A DNA stretch of 64,000 nt from an uncultured Alphaproteobacteria bacterium. Its GTDB lineage: Bacteria; Pseudomonadota; Alphaproteobacteria; UBA2966. Position 1 is the first letter of the stretch. Each line of letters begins with the position of its first letter. Positions 751 to 56,628 of this stretch are shown piece after piece. The notes beneath the pieces are model-generated. The model made no database searches, was not told where the DNA came from, and was given only the letters and a program-made list of their open reading frames with translations. A program made the position numbers and the translations under genes. Location of the stretch: the NCBI GenBank assembly GCA_958295725.1, contig OY282368.1, forward strand, positions 1,282,124 through 1,346,123, read 5' to 3'.

Positions 751-2717
751 GCGACGAGCTGGAGAGATTCGCGAAGGCGTTGCGCGCCGCGCCGCCGCGC
801 CCTTCCGCCGGGGCGCGGGAGCGGGCCGTGGCGGCGGCGCTGGCGGCGTTCGACCGCCTGCATCGGGAACACGGCCAAGGAATCGGCGATGGGGCGCGTC
901 ACAGGGAACAGGCGCCGCGCGGCGGCGCGTCCTTGCCACGGAGATTGGCCATGTCCTTCACGTCCTCCTTCCGCCGCCCCCGGCTCGCGCTGGCCGGCGG
1001 GGCGAGCCTCGCCCTCGTCGCGGGCGCCGCCCTCGTCATCCATCTCTTCCCGGTCGCGCCGCCCACCCCGTTTCCGCTGCTCGCGTCCGTCGAGAGCCCT
1101 CCGGACGCCGCCGGACCGGTCGCCCGGCCCGGCGCTCTCATGAAGACGGCGAGGGAGCCCCGCTCGCTCGACTCGGCGATGTCGATGATCCCGTCGGCGT
1201 CGATGAACTTCTCGGTGGAGGGCCTCTCCGACGGTGAGGAACCGTCGTTCCGCCGGGACGTCCAGGGGCGCGACCGCTTCGCCGCCTTCGATCCCAACCC
1301 GGTGAGAGTCGCCGCCGAGAGGCCCGTCTCGACCTTCTCGGTCGACGTCGACACCGCCTCCTACGCCTTCGCGCGCGCCGCCCTGAACCGGGGCGTGCTG
1401 CCGCCCCCGGACGCGGTGCGTATCGAGGAGCTGGTCAACTACTTCCCCTACGGCTACGAACCGCCGGCGAGCCGCGAGCGGCCCTTCGCCGTCCACGCGG
1501 GGCTGATGCCGGCGCCGTGGAACGACGACGCCCTGCTGCTGCGGATCGGCCTCCAGGGCTACCGGCTGGAGCGCGCCGCCGCGCCGCCCGCCAACCTCGT
1601 GTTCCTGATCGACAGTTCGGGTTCCATGGACGCGCCGGACAAGCTGCCGCTGCTGGTCTCCTCGTTCAAGCTGCTTCTGGACACGCTGGCGCCCGACGAC
1701 ACGGTGGCCATCGTCACCTACGCCGGCGCCGCCGGCACGGTGCTGGAGCCGACCCATGCCGCCGAGCGCGGTCGCATCCTGGCCGCGCTCGAAAGCCTGC
1801 GGGCGGGCGGGTCGACCGCTGGCGGCGAGGGGCTGCGGCAGGCCTACCTGCTGGCCGAGCGGCGCTTCGTCGAGGGCGGCGTCAACCGGGTGATCCTGGC
1901 CACCGACGGCGACTTCAACGTCGGCATCTCCGACCCGGACGAACTGGAGGGCTATATCGCGCGCAAGCGGGAGAGCGGGGTGTACCTGTCGGTTCTGGGC
2001 TTCGGCATGGGCAACTACAACGACGCGCTGATGCAGCGGCTGGCCCAGAACGGCAACGGCGCCGCCGCCTACATCGACGGCCTGCCGGAGGCGCGCAAGG
2101 CGCTGGTGGAGGAGGCGACCTCGATGCTGTTCCCGATCGCCGGGGACGTGAAGGTCCAGGTGGAGTTCAACCCGGCGACGGTGGCCGAGTACCGTCTGAT
2201 CGGCTACGAGACGCGGCTGCTGGCGCGCGAGGACTTCGCCAACGACAGGATGGACGCGGGCGAGATCGGCGCCGGGCATACGGTGACGGCCCTCTACGAG
2301 GTGACGCCTGCGGGGTCGGACGCCCGGCGCGTCGAGCCGCTGCGCTACCGGCGGGAGGCGGCGGAGGCTGGGGAAGCGTCGGCGGCCGGGGCCTTCGCCG
2401 ACGAGATCGCGTTCGTGAAGGTCCGCTACAAGCTTCCGGGGTCCGCGACCGGCGCCGAGATCGCCCGTGCGGTGACCGTCGCCGACGCCTTCGGGAGCGT
2501 CGTGTCGGCGCCCGAGGACCTGCGCTTCGCGGCGGCGGTGGCGGGGTTCGGGCAACTCCTGCGCGGCGGGCGTTACACCGGCGCGTTCGGCTACGACGAC
2601 GTCATCGCGCTGGCCCAGGGGGCCAGAGGCGATGACCCGTTCGGCTACCGGGCCGGGTTCGTCGGCCTCGCGCGTCTGGCGAAGTCGGCCGCCGCCATGG
2701 CGCCGCCCGTCGAATGA
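747..2717 (+). CDS. Anti-sigma factor fused to a von Willebrand factor type A (YfbK-like) domain protein
   Basis: GTGA overlap with the sigma factor stop. Short N-terminal anti-sigma segment and one TM helix (LALAGGASLALVAGAALVIHLF). vWA MIDAS-type motif LVFLIDSSGSMD. Track ORF 414..2717 trimmed to the GTG at 747. Confidence 0.75.
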   Translation: MSDELERFAKALRAAPPRPSAGARERAVAAALAAFDRLHREHGQGIGDGARHREQAPRGGASLPRRLAMSFTSSFRRPRLALAGGASLALVAGAALVIHLFPVAPPTPFPLLASVESPPDAAGPVARPGALMKTAREPRSLDSAMSMIPSASMNFSVEGLSDGEEPSFRRDVQGRDRFAAFDPNPVRVAAERPVSTFSVDVDTASYAFARAALNRGVLPPPDAVRIEELVNYFPYGYEPPASRERPFAVHAGLMPAPWNDDALLLRIGLQGYRLERAAAPPANLVFLIDSSGSMDAPDKLPLLVSSFKLLLDTLAPDDTVAIVTYAGAAGTVLEPTHAAERGRILAALESLRAGGSTAGGEGLRQAYLLAERRFVEGGVNRVILATDGDFNVGISDPDELEGYIARKRESGVYLSVLGFGMGNYNDALMQRLAQNGNGAAAYIDGLPEARKALVEEATSMLFPIAGDVKVQVEFNPATVAEYRLIGYETRLLAREDFANDRMDAGEIGAGHTVTALYEVTPAGSDARRVEPLRYRREAAEAGEASAAGAFADEIAFVKVRYKLPGSATGAEIARAVTVADAFGSVVSAPEDLRFAAAVAGFGQLLRGGRYTGAFGYDDVIALAQGARGDDPFGYRAGFVGLARLAKSAAAMAPPVE

Positions 2718-2930
2718 ACGGCGGCTGGAGAGTCGGGGATGGGCCCGCGTCGCTCCCCGGCCCTCCGCTCCGCCGGGCAATCCCTTCCCGATCCTTCCAT
2801 AACCGGAGACGGCGGACGGCGCCGGGCCGTGGGCGGCGGCTGTCGTGTGGCCTTGGCGGGCGACGTGTGCTTATAGTGCCGTCATCGGCCGCTTCTGTAA
2901 CTGTCGCTGGTTCCGGGGAGGGACGAACAC

Positions 2931-38111: not shown

Positions 38112-39338
<1,227 letters not shown>

Positions 39339-39423
39339 GGTTTCCCGTTATTCCCTTGCGATCCGGCGGGGGACGGAGGCGATCGTTCCAGTCTTCCGCC
39401 TCGATTATACACCACGTCGAAAG

Positions 39424-39917
39424 GCGCGGCGTCCGCACAATCCGCACACCCTCCGGGGGTCGAACCCGGCGTGGCGTCCGCACAATCCGCACACCCTTCG
39501 GGGGTCGAGCCCGGCGTGGCGATCCGCACAATCCGCACACTCTCCGGGGGTCGAACCCGGCGTGGCGATCCGCACAATCCGCACACCCTTCGAGGGTCGA
39601 ACCCGGCGCGGCGATCCGCACGATCCGCACACTCTCCGGGGGTCGAACCCGGCGCGGCAATCCGCACGATCCGCACACTCTCCGGGGGTCGAGCCCGGCG
39701 CGGCGATCCGCACGATCCGCACACTCTCCGGGGGTCGAACCCGGCGCGGCGATCCGCACGATCCGCACACCCTCCGGGGGTCGAGCCCGGCGCGGCGATC
39801 CGCACGATCCGCACACCCTTCGCGGGTCGAGCCCGGCGCGGCGATCCGCACGATCCGCACACTCTCCGGGGGTCGAACCCGGCGCGGCGATCCGCACAAT
39901 CCGCACACCGTCGGGCC
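39424..39917. repeat. Tandem array of about 11 direct repeats of a 45-46-bp unit (no spacers)
   Basis: Unit (G)ATCCGCACAATCCGCACA-CCCTCCGGGGGTCGAACCCGG-CGTGGC. It contains an internal ATCCGCACA duplication and the palindrome CCGGG-GGTCGAA-CCCGG. Variant positions are caatcc/cgatcc, ccctcc/cccttc/actctc, gaaccc/gagccc and gcgtgg/gcgcgg. Confidence 0.9.
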
Positions 39918-39961
39918 GCATATTCCCGGAGCGCCAACCCGGCGCGCGACGGATTTTGACC

Positions 39962-41350
39962 TGTCGAGAACATTTTGAGTTGACCGGATTATGTACCAAA
40001 TGGATTGACCGCTTCTGTTGGGGTTGTTGGCCCTGTGGGGAAGTGGTCAGGCGCGGGGCGGCTGTCCACTTGTCCACAGGGCGCCGGCGGGTTGCGTCGA
40101 AGCGGGTCACGCGGCCTTGCGGGTTTGGGTTTCGAGCGGGGTTCCGTCGGCTTGGTAGTGAGCGAGGCGCCTGGGTCCGTGGAAGACGGCGAGGGTGTCG
40201 TCGGGGTACTCGTGCACCCGGACCTTGACCTTGACGTAGTGGTGGCGATGTCGCCCGGCGGGGATCTGCAGGCTGCGTCCCTTGTAGCGCACGGTGTTGT
40301 CGCCTGACACGGTGCGGTCCTCCTGGACGCAGAGGATGTCTTCCAAGGCGCCGGCGAAGGGCACGAAGGCCGAACCCTCGGCCTCGGGCGGGGTCGCGAA
40401 GCGTCTGTTGTGGTCCGGCAGGTAGACCTCCTCGAGGAAGCGGTTGGCCTCGGCCATGTCGGTGATGCCGGCGAGCCTGAGTTCCTGGGGCAGGCGCTTC
40501 TGCACGGTGGCGAACATGCGCTCCGAGCGCCCCCTGGCCTCGGGCGAGTAGGCGGCGATGTGCTCGATGCCGAGTTGGTGAAGCGCGCGACCGACCTGGG
40601 TCGGAGTGTCCTTGTCCACCTTGCCGCCGGCCTCGGGGGTGCGCCAGTAGTGGCTGCCGCGGTCGGTGTAGAGCGAACAGAACAGTCCGCGCTCGCGGAT
40701 CACCTCGCGGAGCGCCCGGAAGCTCGACATGGTGCCCTCCTCGGTGACGAAGAAGGCCGAGTAGACCTCGCTGGTGGCGTCGTCCAGGGTGACGATCAGG
40801 TCCCACTCCCGACCGGGTGCCCACTCATGGCGCGAGCCGTCCTGATGCAGCATCATGCCGGGCAGTGCCCGGCGCGGCCGCTTGCGCCGGTGGGCGCCGC
40901 GCCGGGGCGCCGCGCGCCTGCGGCCATGAGCCTGCAAGGTCAGCCGAACCCAGTTGTAGCTGCGCTTGATGCCGTGCGCGGTGACCAGCTTCTCGTGAAA
41001 ATGCTTGGCGTTGAAGTCCCAGTAGCGGGTGTCGAACAACGCCAGAACCCGCGCCACCTCGTCCACGCCGGCGCGGCGCGCCGAGACCCGGCCCAGACGG
41101 CGGTCGTACAACCCCTCCGCCCCCTCCGCCTCGTAGCGGTCGCGCCAGCGCCGGAAGGTCCGTTCCGAAACACCCAGAACCTCCGCCGCCTCGCCTTGGC
41201 TCAACACACCCCGATGGGTGCGACCGTAAACCTCCTCGAACTTCATCAATCTCAGTCCCTGTCGCTGCTCCGTCCGACGCATCCAGTCCCTCCTTGGCCT
41301 GAATACGTTCTAAAACCGGACAGATCAGTTGGTACATAATCCGGTCATAT
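39962..41350 (-). mobile_element. Insertion sequence (ISNCY/IS481-like) with about 38-bp imperfect terminal inverted repeats
   Basis: IRL TGTCGAGAACATTTTGAGTTGACCGGATTATGTACCAA (39962..). IRR reverse complement GCTGTCGTTAACAGAGGATATGACCGGATTATGTACCAA (..41361). Flanked by the direct repeat GACGGATTTTGACC (39948-39961 and 41364-41377). Confidence 0.75.
40107..41282 (-). CDS. DDE transposase (rve/integrase-core; ISNCY/IS481-like)
   Basis: 391 aa. N-terminal HTH (LSQGEAAEVLGVSERTFRRWRDRYEAEG) and an integrase-core segment with a YTDRGSHY-type motif. Confidence 0.8.
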   Translation of the reverse strand: MRRTEQRQGLRLMKFEEVYGRTHRGVLSQGEAAEVLGVSERTFRRWRDRYEAEGAEGLYDRRLGRVSARRAGVDEVARVLALFDTRYWDFNAKHFHEKLVTAHGIKRSYNWVRLTLQAHGRRRAAPRRGAHRRKRPRRALPGMMLHQDGSRHEWAPGREWDLIVTLDDATSEVYSAFFVTEEGTMSSFRALREVIRERGLFCSLYTDRGSHYWRTPEAGGKVDKDTPTQVGRALHQLGIEHIAAYSPEARGRSERMFATVQKRLPQELRLAGITDMAEANRFLEEVYLPDHNRRFATPPEAEGSAFVPFAGALEDILCVQEDRTVSGDNTVRYKGRSLQIPAGRHRHHYVKVKVRVHEYPDDTLAVFHGPRRLAHYQADGTPLETQTRKAA

Positions 41351-41375
41351 CCTCTGTTAACGACAGCGACGGATT

Positions 41376-41405
41376 TTGACCTTGCGGCGTCGTTCGTGGT
41401 AGGAT
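41376..41405 (+). promoter_or_regulatory. Candidate sigma70-type promoter of SLP gene copy 1 (TTGACC-N18-TAGGAT)
   Basis: The same element with TAGGGT as the -10 is present at 56531-56560 upstream of copy 2. Its position just upstream of the 13-bp repeat tract would put the repeats in the 5' UTR. Confidence 0.3.
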
Positions 41406-41419
41406 AAGGTTGCGAACTT

Positions 41420-41549
41420 CACGGGGCCTCTTCACGGGGCCTCTTCACGGGGCCTCTTCACGGGGCCTCTTCACGGGGCCTCTTCACGGGGCCTCTTCAC
41501 GGGGCCTCTTCACGGGGCCTCTTCACGGGGCCTCTTCACGGGGCCTCTT
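41420..41549 (+). repeat. Simple sequence repeat (CACGGGGCCTCTT)x10 between the putative promoter and the RBS of the SLP gene
   Basis: Exactly 10 perfect 13-bp units. The RBS GGAGG lies 9 nt after the tract and the ATG is at 41573. Confidence 0.9.
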
Positions 41550-41572
41550 CAGGAAGCGGAGGTCCTGTTCCG

Positions 41573-42904
41573 ATGTTCTTCAGCAGTGCTCGTGGATTCG
41601 TCTTGTCGGCGGTGGCGTGCGCCCTCGTTCTCATTCTCTCCGGCTGCGGCGGCGGCGGGAGCAGCAGCGGCACCGCGCCTCCTCCGGGACGGTCGATGGC
41701 GCAACTCGATCCCGAGCCGACGCCGGCACCAACGCCAACGCCGGAGCCGACGCCGCCGGAGACGCTGAGTAATGCGCTGGCTGTTGAAACGATACAGCCG
41801 GGTGCCGTGCTGGGGATCGAGAAGGCCATCGGCGCCGAACCAAAGGCCAGCAGCAGCACGCTGTCTAGCATCACACAGTCTTCGAATACGGACGCTGATG
41901 GTGTCACGACCGACCAAGTGGAGATATTCGCGGAGTACGGAGCCACCACACCCCGTTTTTCGGTGACAAACGGAGCCGAATGGGCCATCGGCATGGATGA
42001 AGGAAATCCCATGGCGATACAGGGCTTCGACCAATCTTGGAAAGGTGCTCAGTTGATCAACACTCATCTCTCCCATATCTCCGGGGGCACCTTGTACGTC
42101 GATGCCTACACGAACATCGAGGCGCCGACGACGGAGAATGTGCCGGGACCTTCCCAAATAGTAAGGAGAGGTGATACAGTAGGCGGTGTCTTCTTTTCCA
42201 TACCGTCCTCCGGAACTCTGAACGGCGAAGATGGCGAGTTTGAGTGTGGCTCTTCTACATGTTCTTTCAACTACCGGCGGGACTTCTCCGGCCGCGGCCC
42301 CGTTACCGATATCTCAGGGACCGTCTTATTCACCCCAGCCTCTACAACGCGCACAGACACCGACTATCTGGCCGGTGGGGTCTGGCTGTTCGTTCCCGAC
42401 ACTGCGTCAAGCACCGACGACTACGTATTCGGCGTCTTTGCGCGCGGCGAGGATCCTTTCAATCAAGGGCGGATCATGGCTCTAACCGGCAGCGCGACGT
42501 ATATGGGGGGCGCCACCGGGAAATATTCGCAAAAGGATGGTAGTTCGACCACCATCGGATCCTTCGAGGCCGACGTTAGCCTGACGGCCAGCTTTGGTGC
42601 TGCCGACAGCCTTGGTACGATCAGCGGTACGATCACCGATTTCGAATTGGACGGTGAGGCGACCGCGGGCAGCTTGACCTTGGGAGAGGCCGCTATCGGC
42701 TCCGCCAACAGCGGCTTCTTCAAGGGTGCGGTGGGCGGCTCGGATGGCTCCCGCACATACGCTGGCAAGTGGGGTGGCCAGTTCTTCGGCAACGGGGCGG
42801 CCAGTACCGACCATCCGGGATCGGTTGCCGGGACGTTCGGCGCACAGTCCACGGACGAGGCTGTGAACTACATCGGCTTTTTCGGCGCGGACCGGGAGCA
42901 GTAA
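41573..42904 (+). CDS. Surface lipoprotein with TbpB/fHbp-like C-terminal beta-barrel (putative Slam/T11SS cargo), copy 1
   Basis: Lipobox LILSGC followed by a Gly/Ser/Pro-rich linker. Handle-domain-like motifs (ATYMGGATGKY, FEADVSLTASFG...LGTISGTI). C-terminal barrel signature YAGKWGGQFFGNGA...GSVAGTFGA...YIGFFGADREQ. Confidence 0.65.
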   Translation: MFFSSARGFVLSAVACALVLILSGCGGGGSSSGTAPPPGRSMAQLDPEPTPAPTPTPEPTPPETLSNALAVETIQPGAVLGIEKAIGAEPKASSSTLSSITQSSNTDADGVTTDQVEIFAEYGATTPRFSVTNGAEWAIGMDEGNPMAIQGFDQSWKGAQLINTHLSHISGGTLYVDAYTNIEAPTTENVPGPSQIVRRGDTVGGVFFSIPSSGTLNGEDGEFECGSSTCSFNYRRDFSGRGPVTDISGTVLFTPASTTRTDTDYLAGGVWLFVPDTASSTDDYVFGVFARGEDPFNQGRIMALTGSATYMGGATGKYSQKDGSSTTIGSFEADVSLTASFGAADSLGTISGTITDFELDGEATAGSLTLGEAAIGSANSGFFKGAVGGSDGSRTYAGKWGGQFFGNGAASTDHPGSVAGTFGAQSTDEAVNYIGFFGADREQ

Positions 42905-54579: not shown

Positions 54580-54882
54580 CTACGGAAGCAGCTTGAGCAA
54601 GGCGAAGGTCAAGCCGGCGTTGGCGAGCACGATGCCGACGGCAATCCCGACGAACCGGACGGTCACGCGGGTTTCGAGGGCGGCAAGGTCGGCTTTCGTC
54701 GCCATCTTGTCCTCGATGTGTTCGATCTTGTCTTCAAGGTGGGCGATGTCGGTCTTGGCGGCGACGCCTCCGGTGATGGCGTCGCGAACCGTCGCCACGA
54801 CGCTTTCGGCCTGGCGTTCGTCGAACCCGGCTTCCCGGAGCGCCTTGGCGGCGGCGCAGGTGTCGAAGGCGGTAGCGGTCAT
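54580..54882 (-). CDS. DUF1640-like small coiled-coil/TM protein, tandem paralogue 1 of 5
   Basis: N-terminal MTATAFDTCAAAKALREAGFDERQAE, a central coiled coil, and C-terminal TM GIAVGIVLANAGLTFALLKLLP. Confidence 0.5.
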   Translation of the reverse strand: MTATAFDTCAAAKALREAGFDERQAESVVATVRDAITGGVAAKTDIAHLEDKIEHIEDKMATKADLAALETRVTVRFVGIAVGIVLANAGLTFALLKLLP

Positions 54883-54909
54883 GCGGCGGTTCCCCCGGTC
54901 GGGCGCGGC

Positions 54910-55173
54910 CTACGGAAGCAGCTTGAGCAAGGCGAAGGTCAAGCCGGCGTTGGCGAGAACGATGCCGACGGCAATCCCGACGAACCGGACGGTCATGCGG
55001 GTTTCGAGGGCGGCAATCTCGATCCTGAGGTCAGCTTTGGTCGCCAGTTCGTTCCGGTCGGCGGCAGTGGCGTCGCGCATGACGGCGACGGCGGCTTCGG
55101 CCTGGCGTTCGTCGAACCCGGCTTCCCGAAGGGTCTTGGCGGCGGCGCAGGTGTCGAAGGCGGTAGCGGTCAT
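54910..55173 (-). CDS. DUF1640-like small coiled-coil/TM protein, tandem paralogue 2 of 5
   Basis: Same N- and C-terminal modules with a different central segment. Start trimmed to MTATAF. Confidence 0.5.
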   Translation of the reverse strand: MTATAFDTCAAAKTLREAGFDERQAEAAVAVMRDATAADRNELATKADLRIEIAALETRMTVRFVGIAVGIVLANAGLTFALLKLLP

Positions 55174-55199
55174 GCGGCGGTTCCCCGGTCGGGCGCGGC

Positions 55200-55451
55200 C
55201 TACGGAAGCAGCTTGATGAGCGCGACGACGGCGGCGACGATGGCTCCGGCCTGCATCCACGAGGCGCGGTACATCCGCGCTTCGAGAGCGGCAATCTCGA
55301 TCCTGAGGTCAGCTTTGGTCGCCAGTTCGTTCCGGTCGGCGGCAGTGGCGTCGCGCATGACGGCGACGGCGGCTTCGGCCTGGCGTTCGTCGAACCCGGC
55401 TTCCCGAAGGGTCTTGGCGGCGGCGTAGGTGTCGAAGGCAGTGGCGGTCAT
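55200..55451 (-). CDS. DUF1640-like small coiled-coil/TM protein, tandem paralogue 3 of 5
   Basis: Same N-terminus. The C-terminal TM has diverged (WMQAGAIVAAVVALIKLLP). Confidence 0.5.
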   Translation of the reverse strand: MTATAFDTYAAAKTLREAGFDERQAEAAVAVMRDATAADRNELATKADLRIEIAALEARMYRASWMQAGAIVAAVVALIKLLP

Positions 55452-55506
55452 GCGGCGGTTCCCCGGTCGGGCGCGGCCTACGGAAGCAGCTTGAGGGCGG
55501 CGCCGA

Positions 55507-55758
55507 TCAAGCCGCCGGCGGAAGCAGCTTGAGCAAGGCGAAGGTCAAGCCGGCGTTGGCGAACACGATCCCGATAGCGACCTTGAGCATGTCGGCCTTG
55601 AGATCGGCGAGATCGGCCTTGTCGGCCTTGGTGGCCATCTTGTCTTCAAGGCGGGCGATGTCGGTCTTGGTGGCGACGCCTTCGGCCTGGCGTTCGTCGA
55701 ACCCGGCTTCCCGGAGCGCCTTGGCGGCGGCGCAGGTGTCGAAGGCGGTGGCGGTCAT
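55507..55758 (-). CDS. DUF1640-like small coiled-coil/TM protein, tandem paralogue 4 of 5
   Basis: Same N-terminus and a shortened central region. A 3' duplication scar (LKLLPPAA plus a vestigial repeat at 55490-55520). Confidence 0.45.
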   Translation of the reverse strand: MTATAFDTCAAAKALREAGFDERQAEGVATKTDIARLEDKMATKADKADLADLKADMLKVAIGIVFANAGLTFALLKLLPPAA

Positions 55759-55784
55759 GCGGCGGTTCCCCGGTCGGGCGCGGC

Positions 55785-56024
55785 CTACGGAAGCAGCTTG
55801 AGCAAGCCGACGATGAGCACGGCCTGTCCGGCGGCGACGGCGAAGACGAAGCGGACCAGCCGGGTTTCGAGGTTGGCGAGATCGGCCTTCGTCGCCAGCG
55901 TGTCCCGCTCGGCGGCAGTGGCGTCGCGCATGACGGCGACGGCGGCTTCGGCCTGGCGTTCGTCGAACCCGGCTTCCCGAAGAGTCTTGGCGGCGGCGTA
56001 AGTGTCGAAGGCGGTGGCGGGCAT
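55785..56024 (-). CDS. DUF1640-like small coiled-coil/TM protein, tandem paralogue 5 of 5
   Basis: MPATAFDTYAAAKTLREAGFDERQAE... The track ORF extends to 56090, and the start is uncertain. Confidence 0.45.
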   Translation of the reverse strand: MPATAFDTYAAAKTLREAGFDERQAEAAVAVMRDATAAERDTLATKADLANLETRLVRFVFAVAAGQAVLIVGLLKLLP

Positions 56025-56186
56025 GAAGCGATCATGGGCCATCACGGGTCCTTGCGCAAGTTCCGCACGGTCCCGCAACATCCCGTCCATGCCCGTTTCA
56101 GATTGTTGGCGAAATTGGGGGTGTAATCCGATGTCCAGAAGAAATATCGCATTTTTCTGTGGATTTCAGGACATTTAGCGGCGGAT

Positions 56187-56230
56187 TCCCAATCCGCAGG
56201 CCGGAGGTTCGAATCCCTCCGGGGTCGCCA
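56187..56230 (+). other. tRNA-Gly(CCC)-like 3' fragment (anticodon arm, imperfect T-arm, acceptor 3' strand plus CCA) lacking a 5' half
   Basis: GCGGA-TTCCCAA-TCCGC stem-loop with anticodon CCC. GGTTCGAATCC T-loop. ...GGGGTCGCCA at the end. The upstream 30 nt cannot form the D-arm or acceptor 5' strand. Confidence 0.35.
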
Positions 56231-56574
56231 AGCCTCTCCTTCCAGAAACCCTGGAGAAACAGCGACTTTCACGGAACGAGGCCAAAGAAATTGGCTCGAT
56301 TGGCGAATCGCAGGCATGTCCCGGCCGTGGCGGTCGGACATGGCAGCCTCTCCTATATCCGGGGAACCTGAACCACATGCCGCTCGAATACTGAATGCCG
56401 CTTACAGGTCCTGAGCCTGGCGACACACGACCGCACCGGGCACTCGACGGACATACCCCTGCCGAGTACCTTCACTCGCTCACAGCCAATGAGACCCCAT
56501 CGTCTCATATATCCTGAACCAGGACGAATTTTGACCTTGCGGCGTCGTTCGTGGTAGGGTAGGGTTGCGAACTT

Positions 56575-56605
56575 CACGGGGCCTCTTATCTTCACGGGGC
56601 CTCTT
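56575..56605 (+). repeat. Two copies of the CACGGGGCCTCTT unit (separated by ATCTT) upstream of SLP gene copy 2
   Basis: Same promoter-proximal context as 41420-41549, but 2 units rather than 10. Confidence 0.85.
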
Positions 56606-56628
56606 ATTAAGAAACAGAGAGGTTCCGA

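Follow-up and report, generated by a model that had tools for sequence, protein, structure and literature searches.

Introduction

The IS1202 family of insertion sequences (ISs) is recognized by a transposase in which a helix-turn-helix (HTH) domain is followed by a DDE domain with a DD pair and a glutamine at E+7 (Siguier et al., bioRxiv 10.1101/2022.12.17.520857). Its members fall into three types by the length of the target-site duplication, namely the ISAba32 type (5-6 bp), the ISTde1 type (15-17 bp), and the IS1202 type (27-28 bp) (bioRxiv 10.1101/2022.12.17.520857; PMC10132070). In the ISAba32 subgroup, the transposase-proximal inverted repeat (IRL) comes to lie one duplication length from XerC-bound sites of unconserved sequence (bioRxiv 10.1101/2022.12.17.520857). 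Siguier et al. treat targeting for this subgroup only, and promoters are considered there only as junction or hybrid promoters. The long-duplication groups are described as lacking a site preference in one of the two family papers (Siguier et al.; Harmer et al., PMC10132070). In the full-text literature searched, which does not extend to ISfinder or TnPedia, promoter or -35 targeting was nowhere described for the IS1202 family.

Here we describe an IS of this family in a 64,000-nucleotide stretch (the window) of contig OY282368.1 from an uncultured alphaproteobacterium, where it lies beside the promoter of a surface-lipoprotein gene, SLP1. A preliminary description had regarded this position as a feature of the single locus, but it proved to be a systematic property of the lineage, recurring at 58 sites of the element's clade and in a published table. 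Taken as a whole, the locus is probably best explained by a recently mobile IS1202-family element of the ISTde1 subgroup whose lineage inserts by a promoter rule. Insertion next to the -35 element of promoters appears to be a family-wide rule that has seemingly gone unreported; it is supported by three independent data sets, of which one was published by others.

Target sites of the element and its close relatives

The exact 391-aa transposase of the window IS was found on at least 19 contigs of the metagenome assembly ENA ERZ19489113 (21 contigs in another search, the longest of 3.5 Mb). At eight of the 10 loci retrieved from this assembly, the IS matches the window copy at 1404/1404 positions, each time in a different flank. 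Five of these eight have a perfect 16-17-bp duplication, two have an imperfect one (2 mismatches), and one (L084) has none. Since eight copies in one assembly are 100% identical, the window IS is, by this measure of sequence identity, one that moved recently. The earlier view that it is complete and potentially active was thereby strengthened: it is complete and, given identical copies in different contexts, probably active.

Relatives are encoded in 566 stretches of the GTDB species representatives. The best 80 of these 566 are 80-87% identical and occur in metagenome-assembled genomes of Alphaproteobacteria and Paracoccaceae, often in many copies per genome, with IS lengths of 1,372-1,410 bp. 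For measuring duplications, the ends of the relatives were fixed at TGTC...CGACA; the perfect duplications at unique sites of the clade measured 16 bp (14 sites), 17 bp (28 sites), or 18 bp (3 sites). At two loci, L088 (1496-4321) and L033, IS copies follow one another head to tail (duplication-IS-duplication-IS-duplication), and an identical 17-bp sequence both separates and flanks them. These arrays, which may be unresolved IS dimers, junction intermediates, or products of unequal recombination, were left out of the target statistics. Several of the duplications or flanks of the identical copies (L083, L084, and L086) have the palindrome GTCCTGGTTCAGGAC in common, and an operator or REP-like element may recur close to some of the targeted promoters.

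We assembled 58 unique insertion sites of this clade, comprising the window, the identical copies, and the relatives at 80-87% identity, and counted bases outward from the outer edge of the IRL-side duplication. The bases just outside this duplication are nearly always ...GTCAA or ...GCAA, which read outward as TTGAC or TTGC. By position, T occupies +1 at 50/58 sites and +2 at 39/58, G occupies +3 at 50/58, A or C +4 at 46/58, and C +5 at 39/58; further out, T is found at +24 (37/58), A at +25 (41/58), and T at +29 (45/58). No sequence information was detected at +7 to +23 or inside the duplication among the 58 sites. The consensus beyond the duplication is thus TTGMCA-N17-TAnnnT, a sigma-70-type promoter facing away from the IS, where "promoter" means throughout a match to the -35/-10 pattern combined with gene orientation. 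The flanks of the identical copies illustrate the pattern: TTGCAA-17-TATATT, TTGTAA-17-TAACAT, TTGCCA-17-TAACGT, TTGCGG-17-CATAAT, TTGCAT-17-TATAAG upstream of rpmI, and TTGCCA-17-TACCTT 61 bp from the start of parD.

As controls, we used TTG sites in non-coding DNA up to 300 bp upstream of roughly called genes, taken from the same loci and in the same orientation. TAnnnT stands at exactly 17 bp in 32/56 insertion sites and in 13/849 control TTG sites (Fisher 7.5e-19); when the controls were restricted to TTGMC, it was found at 7/166 (Fisher 6.7e-7 for the TTGMC class). A score of at least 7/12 to TTGACA-17-TATAAT was reached by 39/56 insertion sites as against 0.41% of 85,454 control positions. 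On the side of the transposase-distal inverted repeat (IRR), none of the 56 flanks has the TAnnnT and only one has a TTG. Gene orientation agrees with an outward-facing promoter. The gene closest to IRL points away from the IS in 33 cases versus 7 by our rough gene caller and in 8/11 by database gene calls, with start codons 61-410 bp from IRL. Our own gene calls, which are based on GC content at third codon positions (GC3), are crude: they missed SLP1 and placed spurious open reading frames (ORFs) over some intergenic sites. They were used only for controls and orientation counts and never for single sites.

All insertions examined with database gene calls are intergenic, as would be favored if insertion were random and purifying selection let only the copies just upstream of promoters survive. 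Such selection, however, cannot phase the edge of a duplication to a single base (T at +1 in 50/58, the -10 exactly at +24 to +29), nor can it give the near-absolute orientation bias seen in the IRR-side count of 0/56. Intergenic DNA without a promoter would be at least equally safe, and the insertion at L111, which lies inside the transposase gene of another IS, still shows TTGCCT-17-TATCGT. We therefore consider survival alone scarcely credible as the source of the pattern.

The T at +29 corresponds to -7T, which is present at 45/58 of the targeted promoters of this clade. Most alphaproteobacterial sigma-70 promoters lack -7T (Myers et al., PMC8407463). The IS may thus favor those promoters at which stable complexes arise without CarD.

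Promoter-adjacent insertion in other members of the family

A first protein search returned only near-identical relatives (at least 78% identity), which are of no use for judging generality. We therefore used a distant set of seven groups of identical copies at about 40-50% identity (representatives at 50% and 40%) from unrelated and partly AT-rich hosts, and set the ends of each group where the contexts of its copies diverge. TTG stands at the duplication edge in 22/30 unique IRL flanks versus 6.5% of control positions, and TAnnnT follows exactly 17 bp on in 12/30 versus 1.0% of controls (Fisher 1.7e-16). The count on the IRR side was 2/32, and both cases resemble insertions in the opposite orientation. 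One group, P0393, offers only two distinct sites, one of them atypical, with an 8-bp repeat and the promoter 8 bp from IRR.

The third data set was Supplementary Table 1 of Siguier et al., which gives the left flank, duplication, IRL, IRR, and right flank of curated members; every row with a duplication was transcribed and counted. In the ISTde1 sheet (duplications of 15-18 bp), TTG lies at the IRL edge in 23 of 36 rows and TAnnnT 16-18 bp further on in 27, compared with 5.4% and 5.2% in controls (Fisher 3e-19 and 3e-25, respectively). In the IS1202 sheet (duplications of 24-29 bp), the corresponding numbers are 24 and 29 of 31 rows, with controls at 4.4% and 9.2% (Fisher 7e-24 and 7e-26); the copies of IS1202 itself in Streptococcus pneumoniae (3/3) fit the promoter geometry. 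Four further rows of the ISTde1 sheet have the promoter on the IRR side. Published examples include ISDku2 (TTGACG-17-TATAAT), ISFco1 (TTGAAA-17-TATAAT), ISPa130 (TTGCCG-17-TATAAT), ISCul1 (TTGACA-17-TATAAT), and ISCde4 (TTGCGC-17-TATAAT), the last adjoining a tRNA gene in the same table. Judged from these rows, both long-duplication subgroups appear to end the IRL-side duplication at the -35 hexamer, with only the stagger differing.

Structure and family assignment of the element

The coordinates of the IS, its target sites, and the neighboring features are listed in Table 1.

Table 1. Features of the window around the insertion sequence and at the paralogous SLP2 site
Feature	Position	Strand	Description and basis
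Complete insertion sequence	39962-41365	minus	1,404 bp; TGT...ACA termini and abutting 16-bp duplication
IRL, transposase-proximal inverted repeat	41329-41365	minus	inward reading TGTCGTTAACAGAGGATATGACCGGATTATGTACCAA; alignment of both ends
IRR, transposase-distal inverted repeat	39962-39999	plus	inward reading TGTCGAGAACATTTTGAGTTGACCGGATTATGTACCAA; alignment of both ends
Target-site duplication, IRR-side copy	39946-39961	plus	GCGACGGATTTTGACC; perfect direct repeat abutting the terminus
Target-site duplication, IRL-side copy	41366-41381	plus	GCGACGGATTTTGACC; holds the -35 candidate TTGACC at 41376-41381
Transposase gene	40107-41282	minus	391 aa, single intact ORF filling the element; N-terminal HTH, then DDE domain
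Targeted promoter by family geometry	41382-41410	plus	-35 TTGCGG 41382-41387, 17-bp spacer, -10 TAAGGT 41405-41410, toward SLP1
Overlapping alternative promoter	41376-41405	plus	TTGACC 41376-41381, 18 bp, TAGGAT 41400-41405; promoter scan
Uninterrupted paralogous site upstream of SLP2	56521-56565	plus	AGGACGAATTTTGACC, TTGCGG 56537-56542, 17 bp, TAGGGT 56560-56565
Acyl-CoA dehydrogenase gene	38112-39338	minus	

IRL is the right-hand end in window coordinates, the transposase gene being on the minus strand. The preliminary description had rightly recognized a complete element, but its limits (39948-41377) cut through the duplications. Its 38-bp inverted repeats do begin with TGTCG at both ends, as it had said; the match between them is imperfect, with 30/38 columns identical and one indel. 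Both repeats contain a perfect 19-nt core, TGACCGGATTATGTACCAA, from position 19/20. This core occurs nowhere else in the 64-kb window, in which no second copy or remnant of the IS was found either.

The flanking direct repeat had been given as 14 bp. Its length is 16 bp; the repeat finder puts it at 17 nt, since it also counts an ambiguous T with which the IS opens on the left and the flank on the right. The 14-mer GACGGATTTTGACC, the inner part of the 16-bp duplication, occurs at exactly two places, both flanking the IS, and GACGAATTTTGACC, with one mismatch to it, is found once, at 56523-56536. Allowing up to 2 mismatches, there are three matches versus 0.33 expected, and 0/100 shuffles reached three. 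The perfect repeat that abuts both termini bears out the original proposal of a target-site duplication. ARAGORN found no tRNA in the 64-kb window that could be a target or neighbor.

The transposase is encoded, as first described, by an intact ORF. It matches the NCBIfam model NF033594 (transpos_ISNCY_2) with 362.6 bits (cut-off 250), residues 18-376 aligning to positions 2-364 of the 368-position profile, whereas the IS481 model NF033577 reaches 106.3 bits, below its cut-off of 224. Of the initial label "ISNCY/IS481-like", only the first half thus holds, and membership of the IS481 family was rejected. Pfam matches are limited to N-terminal HTH domains (HTH_28/29/23/32, residues 23-110). By inspection of motifs, the catalytic residues are D148 (HQDGS), D207 (YTDRGS), and E254, accompanied by the DD pair D167-D168 (LDDAT) and by Q261 at E+7. 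The spacing from D207 to E254, read from motif positions, is 47 residues and seems long. The length of 391 aa is repeated in dozens of relatives. The protein is 30-37% identical to ISKpn21, ISRel10, and ISAjo2-type genes in plasmid records, and the inverted repeats resemble those of ISMyba1 and ISBrsp11 in Supplementary Table 1 of Siguier et al. As in other IS1202-family members, the inverted repeats start with 5'-TGT and have a second conserved block near position 20, and the relatives share TGTC...CGACA ends.

On the basis of its TGT termini, its length of 1.4 kb, its transposase of about 390 aa, and its 16-bp duplication, which falls within the 15-17 bp of the subgroup, the window element is by sequence a member of the IS1202 family (formerly ISNCY), ISTde1 subgroup. 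The concern raised at the outset, that its family might never make duplications of this kind, does not apply, since the ISTde1 subgroup normally makes duplications of 15-17 bp. Assignment to the ISAba32 subgroup was rejected in view of the 16-bp duplication, the promoter-like IRL flank, and the lack of an xrs site. Taken by itself, the element is unremarkable, a new ISTde1-subgroup member of the usual kind.

The SLP1 site and its paralogues

Outward from IRL, the window reads GCGACGGATTTTGACC, TTGCGG, cgtcgttcgtggtagga, TAAGGT, then a tandem 13-nt repeat, and then the start of SLP1 (ATG at 41573). The duplication edge directly adjoins the -35/-10 pair, so the preliminary placement of the insertion at the boundary of the SLP1 promoter was correct. 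It had named TTGACC as the -35 of this promoter. TTGACC-18-TAGGAT is indeed the only consensus promoter match that a scan of 39300-41700 returned; the family geometry favors TTGCGG and TAAGGT instead. Both promoter pairs are kept in the paralogues.

An independent insertion bears on the choice between them. At L084, a related contig with a third paralogous promoter, an identical IS copy has its IRL 17 bp from the same TTGCGG with a different outer flank, and the same promoter-leader cassette stands there before a different gene, encoding a signal-peptide protein that is followed by a BigA-like protein. Together with the family geometry, this insertion points to TTGCGG (41382-41387) as the probable reference point of the insertion. 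The site upstream of SLP2, which had been suggested as an analogue of the empty site, serves well as one: a 16-bp equivalent of the duplication is followed without interruption by TTGCGG-17-TAGGGT. By this comparison, the SLP2 promoter is empty and the promoter motif evidently pre-exists the insertion.

The preliminary description had further proposed that the IS might modulate SLP1 through an outward-reading or hybrid promoter. In that case, an ordinary IS would have landed at the boundary by chance and might drive or modulate SLP1 by means of the duplicated TTGACC, and several features are compatible with this: TTGACC-18-TAGGAT is the sole consensus match mentioned above, its -35 lies in the duplication, and a second copy of TTGACC abuts the IRR end at 39956-39961. 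The right-hand copy of the duplication, however, keeps the native -35, spacer, and -10 unchanged, and no hybrid is needed. No -10-like hexamer was found by the scan inside the IS after the left-hand TTGACC, the IS end that faces SLP1 has no outward -35, and the scan of 39300-41700 returned no promoter at the IS ends. The family-wide rule accounts for the position, and at L084 a separate insertion struck this very base. The idea of an outward-reading or hybrid promoter was accordingly not borne out, and a chance landing is very unlikely.

SLP1 and SLP2 encode lipobox proteins that are 45% identical over the C-terminal 258 residues, and each gene is followed by one for a Slam-type outer-membrane protein (Pfam SlipAM). 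Each promoter is separated from its start codon by a leader in which a single motif forms a tandem array of variable make-up: before SLP1 (41417-41551), tandem CTTCACGGGGCCT x10.4 with copies 100% identical; before SLP2 (56572-56607), an 18-nt unit x2; and in the L084 cassette (about 2640-2860, minus strand), a 17-nt unit x14. Promoter and repeat leader together look like a duplicated regulatory cassette placed before different surface-protein genes, and the copy number of the leader repeat may tune or phase-vary expression.

On the other side of the IS, a 46-bp tandem repeat (39423-39909; 10.6 copies, 93% matches) occupies the divergent intergenic region between the acyl-CoA dehydrogenase gene and the IS. 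Before the insertion, this array lay upstream at about 37 bp from the 16-bp target and about 50 bp from the -35, distances that have since grown by 1.4 kb. The array is absent from the SLP2 paralogue.

Other repeats and remnants surround the SLP2 region. A 278-bp tandem repeat (54805-56025; 4.3 copies, 74% matches) lies just upstream and overlaps small minus-strand ORFs with coding-like GC3 (54583-56090). The stretch at about 56170-56232 resembles the 3' half of a tRNA (T-arm GGTTCGAATCC, acceptor end ...GGGGTCGCCA), with ARAGORN calling no tRNA in the window, and the translation of about 56380-56520 resembles the C-terminus of an integrase or transposase. These two stretches may be the remnant of an integrated element bordering the SLP2 cassette.

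Possible mechanism of target recognition

The insertion sites compared here show an oriented and base-precise association of IRL, duplication, and -35/-10 pair, as far as such pairs can be read from sequence. By this rule, the IRL-side duplication has its edge at the first base of a -35-like hexamer, and the -10 TAnnnT stands 17 bp beyond; the promoter would fire away from the IS, the transposase gene being divergent from it. The staggered cuts would lie near -36 and near -52/-53, counted from the transcription start. Both hexamers and the 16 bp upstream of them would stay next to the gene, and the DNA upstream of about -52, which at SLP1 includes the 46-bp x10.6 array, would be displaced by 1.4 kb. 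Because the core promoter would be spared, an insertion could alter only upstream-dependent regulation.

We propose that the transpososome captures promoters to which RNA polymerase holoenzyme is already bound. IRL-side strand transfer would be anchored by sigma region 4 at the -35 hexamer or by a neighboring surface of the polymerase, with one cut fixed beside this anchor and the other made one or two helical turns further away. From one duplication class to the next (5-6, 16-17, and 27-28 bp), the length rises by about 11 bp, or one helical turn, and this spacing would fit one cut fixed at the anchor with the second moved in steps along a single helical face.

Several lines of evidence lead us to favor polymerase capture. 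Sites without TTG still carry a -10 at the fixed distance (15/22), and the quality of the -35 is not positively correlated with that of the -10 (rho -0.16), as expected if overall promoter strength rather than one motif is selected. The conserved -10 positions are those that sigma reads (-12T, -11A, and -7T), promoters of tRNA and ribosomal-protein genes recur among the targets, and the transposase-binding repeats in the inverted repeats of most family members are ATGTCC, not TTGACA. In addition, the ISAba32 subgroup offers a parallel in what may be the same architecture with a different host protein. On balance, we place polymerase-guided recognition of promoter DNA at about even odds. It is tentative, and somewhat short of an even chance, that the ISTde1 and IS1202 subgroups as such are transposons guided by the transcription machinery, docking on holoenzyme or sigma region 4. 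The IRL strand transfer would then occur at the upstream edge of the -35 and the other about 1.5 or 2.5 helical turns upstream; with the XerC-directed ISAba32 subgroup included, the whole family would read host protein-DNA complexes, and duplications of 5, 16, and 27 bp would be set by helical phasing.

A number of observations weigh against a general promoter rule or against polymerase as its reader. Promoters were called from pattern and gene orientation, and rough GC3-based gene calls underlie the control set. No promoter is apparent at three ISVbsp4 rows, at ISGba2, or at some sites of the clade and of the distant groups. The window site itself fits the rule less cleanly than most: its hexamers TTGCGG and TAAGGT are weak, and the better-matching TTGACC-18-TAGGAT lies 6 bp nearer the IS. 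In the published table, IRR-side flanks too show a weak preference for TTG (11/36), and the transpososome may prefer TTG at both cuts. The window IS has TTGACC inside IRR, about 18 nt from the terminus, and recognition in this clade could include a pseudo-end component. Finally, an earlier description of the rule could exist outside the literature searched.

Two of these observations, together with the view of Harmer et al. (PMC10132070) that the determinants of specificity lie in the transposase, would suit a reading in which the transposase or transpososome itself reads a TTGACA-like hexamer one duplication length from IRL. No RNA polymerase would be involved, and the -10 would follow because such hexamers, where they are tolerated, tend to belong to promoters. 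The distance of TTGACC from the IRR terminus is near the 16-17 nt between IRL and the hexamer, and the IRR-side TTG enrichment, along with a slightly raised G at +3 in our own set, is what a two-fold symmetric complex predicts. Such direct reading does not explain why sites lacking TTG keep TAnnnT at its fixed distance, nor why a -10 of this kind accompanies 45% of TTGMC insertion sites versus 4% of promoter-compatible non-coding TTGMC sites. At the four sites of ISFersp1 in Ferrovum, moreover, the -10 is constant and the -35 varies, and most members, with ATGTCC rather than TTGACA repeats, choose the same target. We regard direct reading as unlikely, though it deserves more weight than selection or chance. 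A narrower version, in which the -35-like motif mimics the IS end or a binding repeat, was downgraded on account of ATGTCC in most members and of a -10 without counterpart in the inverted repeats.

Implications

A widespread group of ISs thus appears to integrate with single-base precision beside sigma-70 promoters. The group spans Proteobacteria, Firmicutes, Nitrospirae, Chloroflexi, Acidobacteria, and other phyla, and includes the pneumococcal IS1202. If confirmed, this would add a new class to the ways in which bacterial DDE transposases select their target sites, and contact with polymerase or sigma would provide a testable hypothesis for the unusually long duplications of the family. If true, the rule would explain low-cost persistence, genes and core promoters both being spared, and the chief phenotypic effect would be to sever promoters from upstream regulatory DNA, as in SLP1 versus SLP2. 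Every insertion would then mark a promoter in uncultured organisms, and the system might offer a route to promoter-proximal safe-harbor integration in engineering.

Comparison with known systems

Like the rest of the ISTde1 subgroup, the window IS encodes one HTH-DDE transposase (about 390-430 aa in the subgroup) with the DD pair and the Q at E+7, and it has TGT termini and imperfect repeats with a block near position 20. ISCARN53 of this subgroup (1,404 bp, 16-bp duplication, 407-aa transposase) agrees with it in size and duplication (PMC10132070), and ISTde1 itself has 1,327 bp, a 17-bp duplication, and a 394-aa transposase. The window IS differs in being a new sequence, with 80-87% protein identity to its closest relatives in public genomes, and in its evident promoter targeting, whereas the literature on the subgroup gives no target preference. 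The IS1202 subgroup (IS1202 of Streptococcus pneumoniae and relatives) follows the same promoter-abutting rule in the reanalyzed published table, but its duplication is 24-29 bp, about one helical turn longer, its transposase contains an insertion of about 30 extra aa, and its hosts are Firmicutes and Tenericutes.

The ISAba32/ISAjo2 subgroup (ISKpn21, ISRel10, and ISAjo2) belongs to the same family and likewise inserts in one orientation, with IRL one duplication length from the site of a host protein. It differs in its 5-6-bp duplication, in its XerCD targets (the XerC arm of xrs/dif), and in a protein identity of 30-37%. With the IS481 family, the window element has in common an HTH and DDE transposase, TGT...ACA ends, and a partial match of 106 bits to the IS481 model, but its transposase has Q rather than K/R at E+7. 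Duplications in the IS481 family are 4-15 bp long, typically about 6 bp.

Outside this group of families, Tn7 (through TnsD at attTn7), Ty3/Ty1 (RNA polymerase III promoters), and Tf1 (RNA polymerase II promoters) find their targets via DNA-bound host proteins. Their enzymes and hosts are unrelated to those considered here, where a single DDE transposase would act with no accessory targeting protein encoded and with a putative role of polymerase. What the window IS and its relatives share with these elements is a fixed, non-disruptive position, set by a host protein-DNA complex or promoter, that provides a safe haven upstream of genes.

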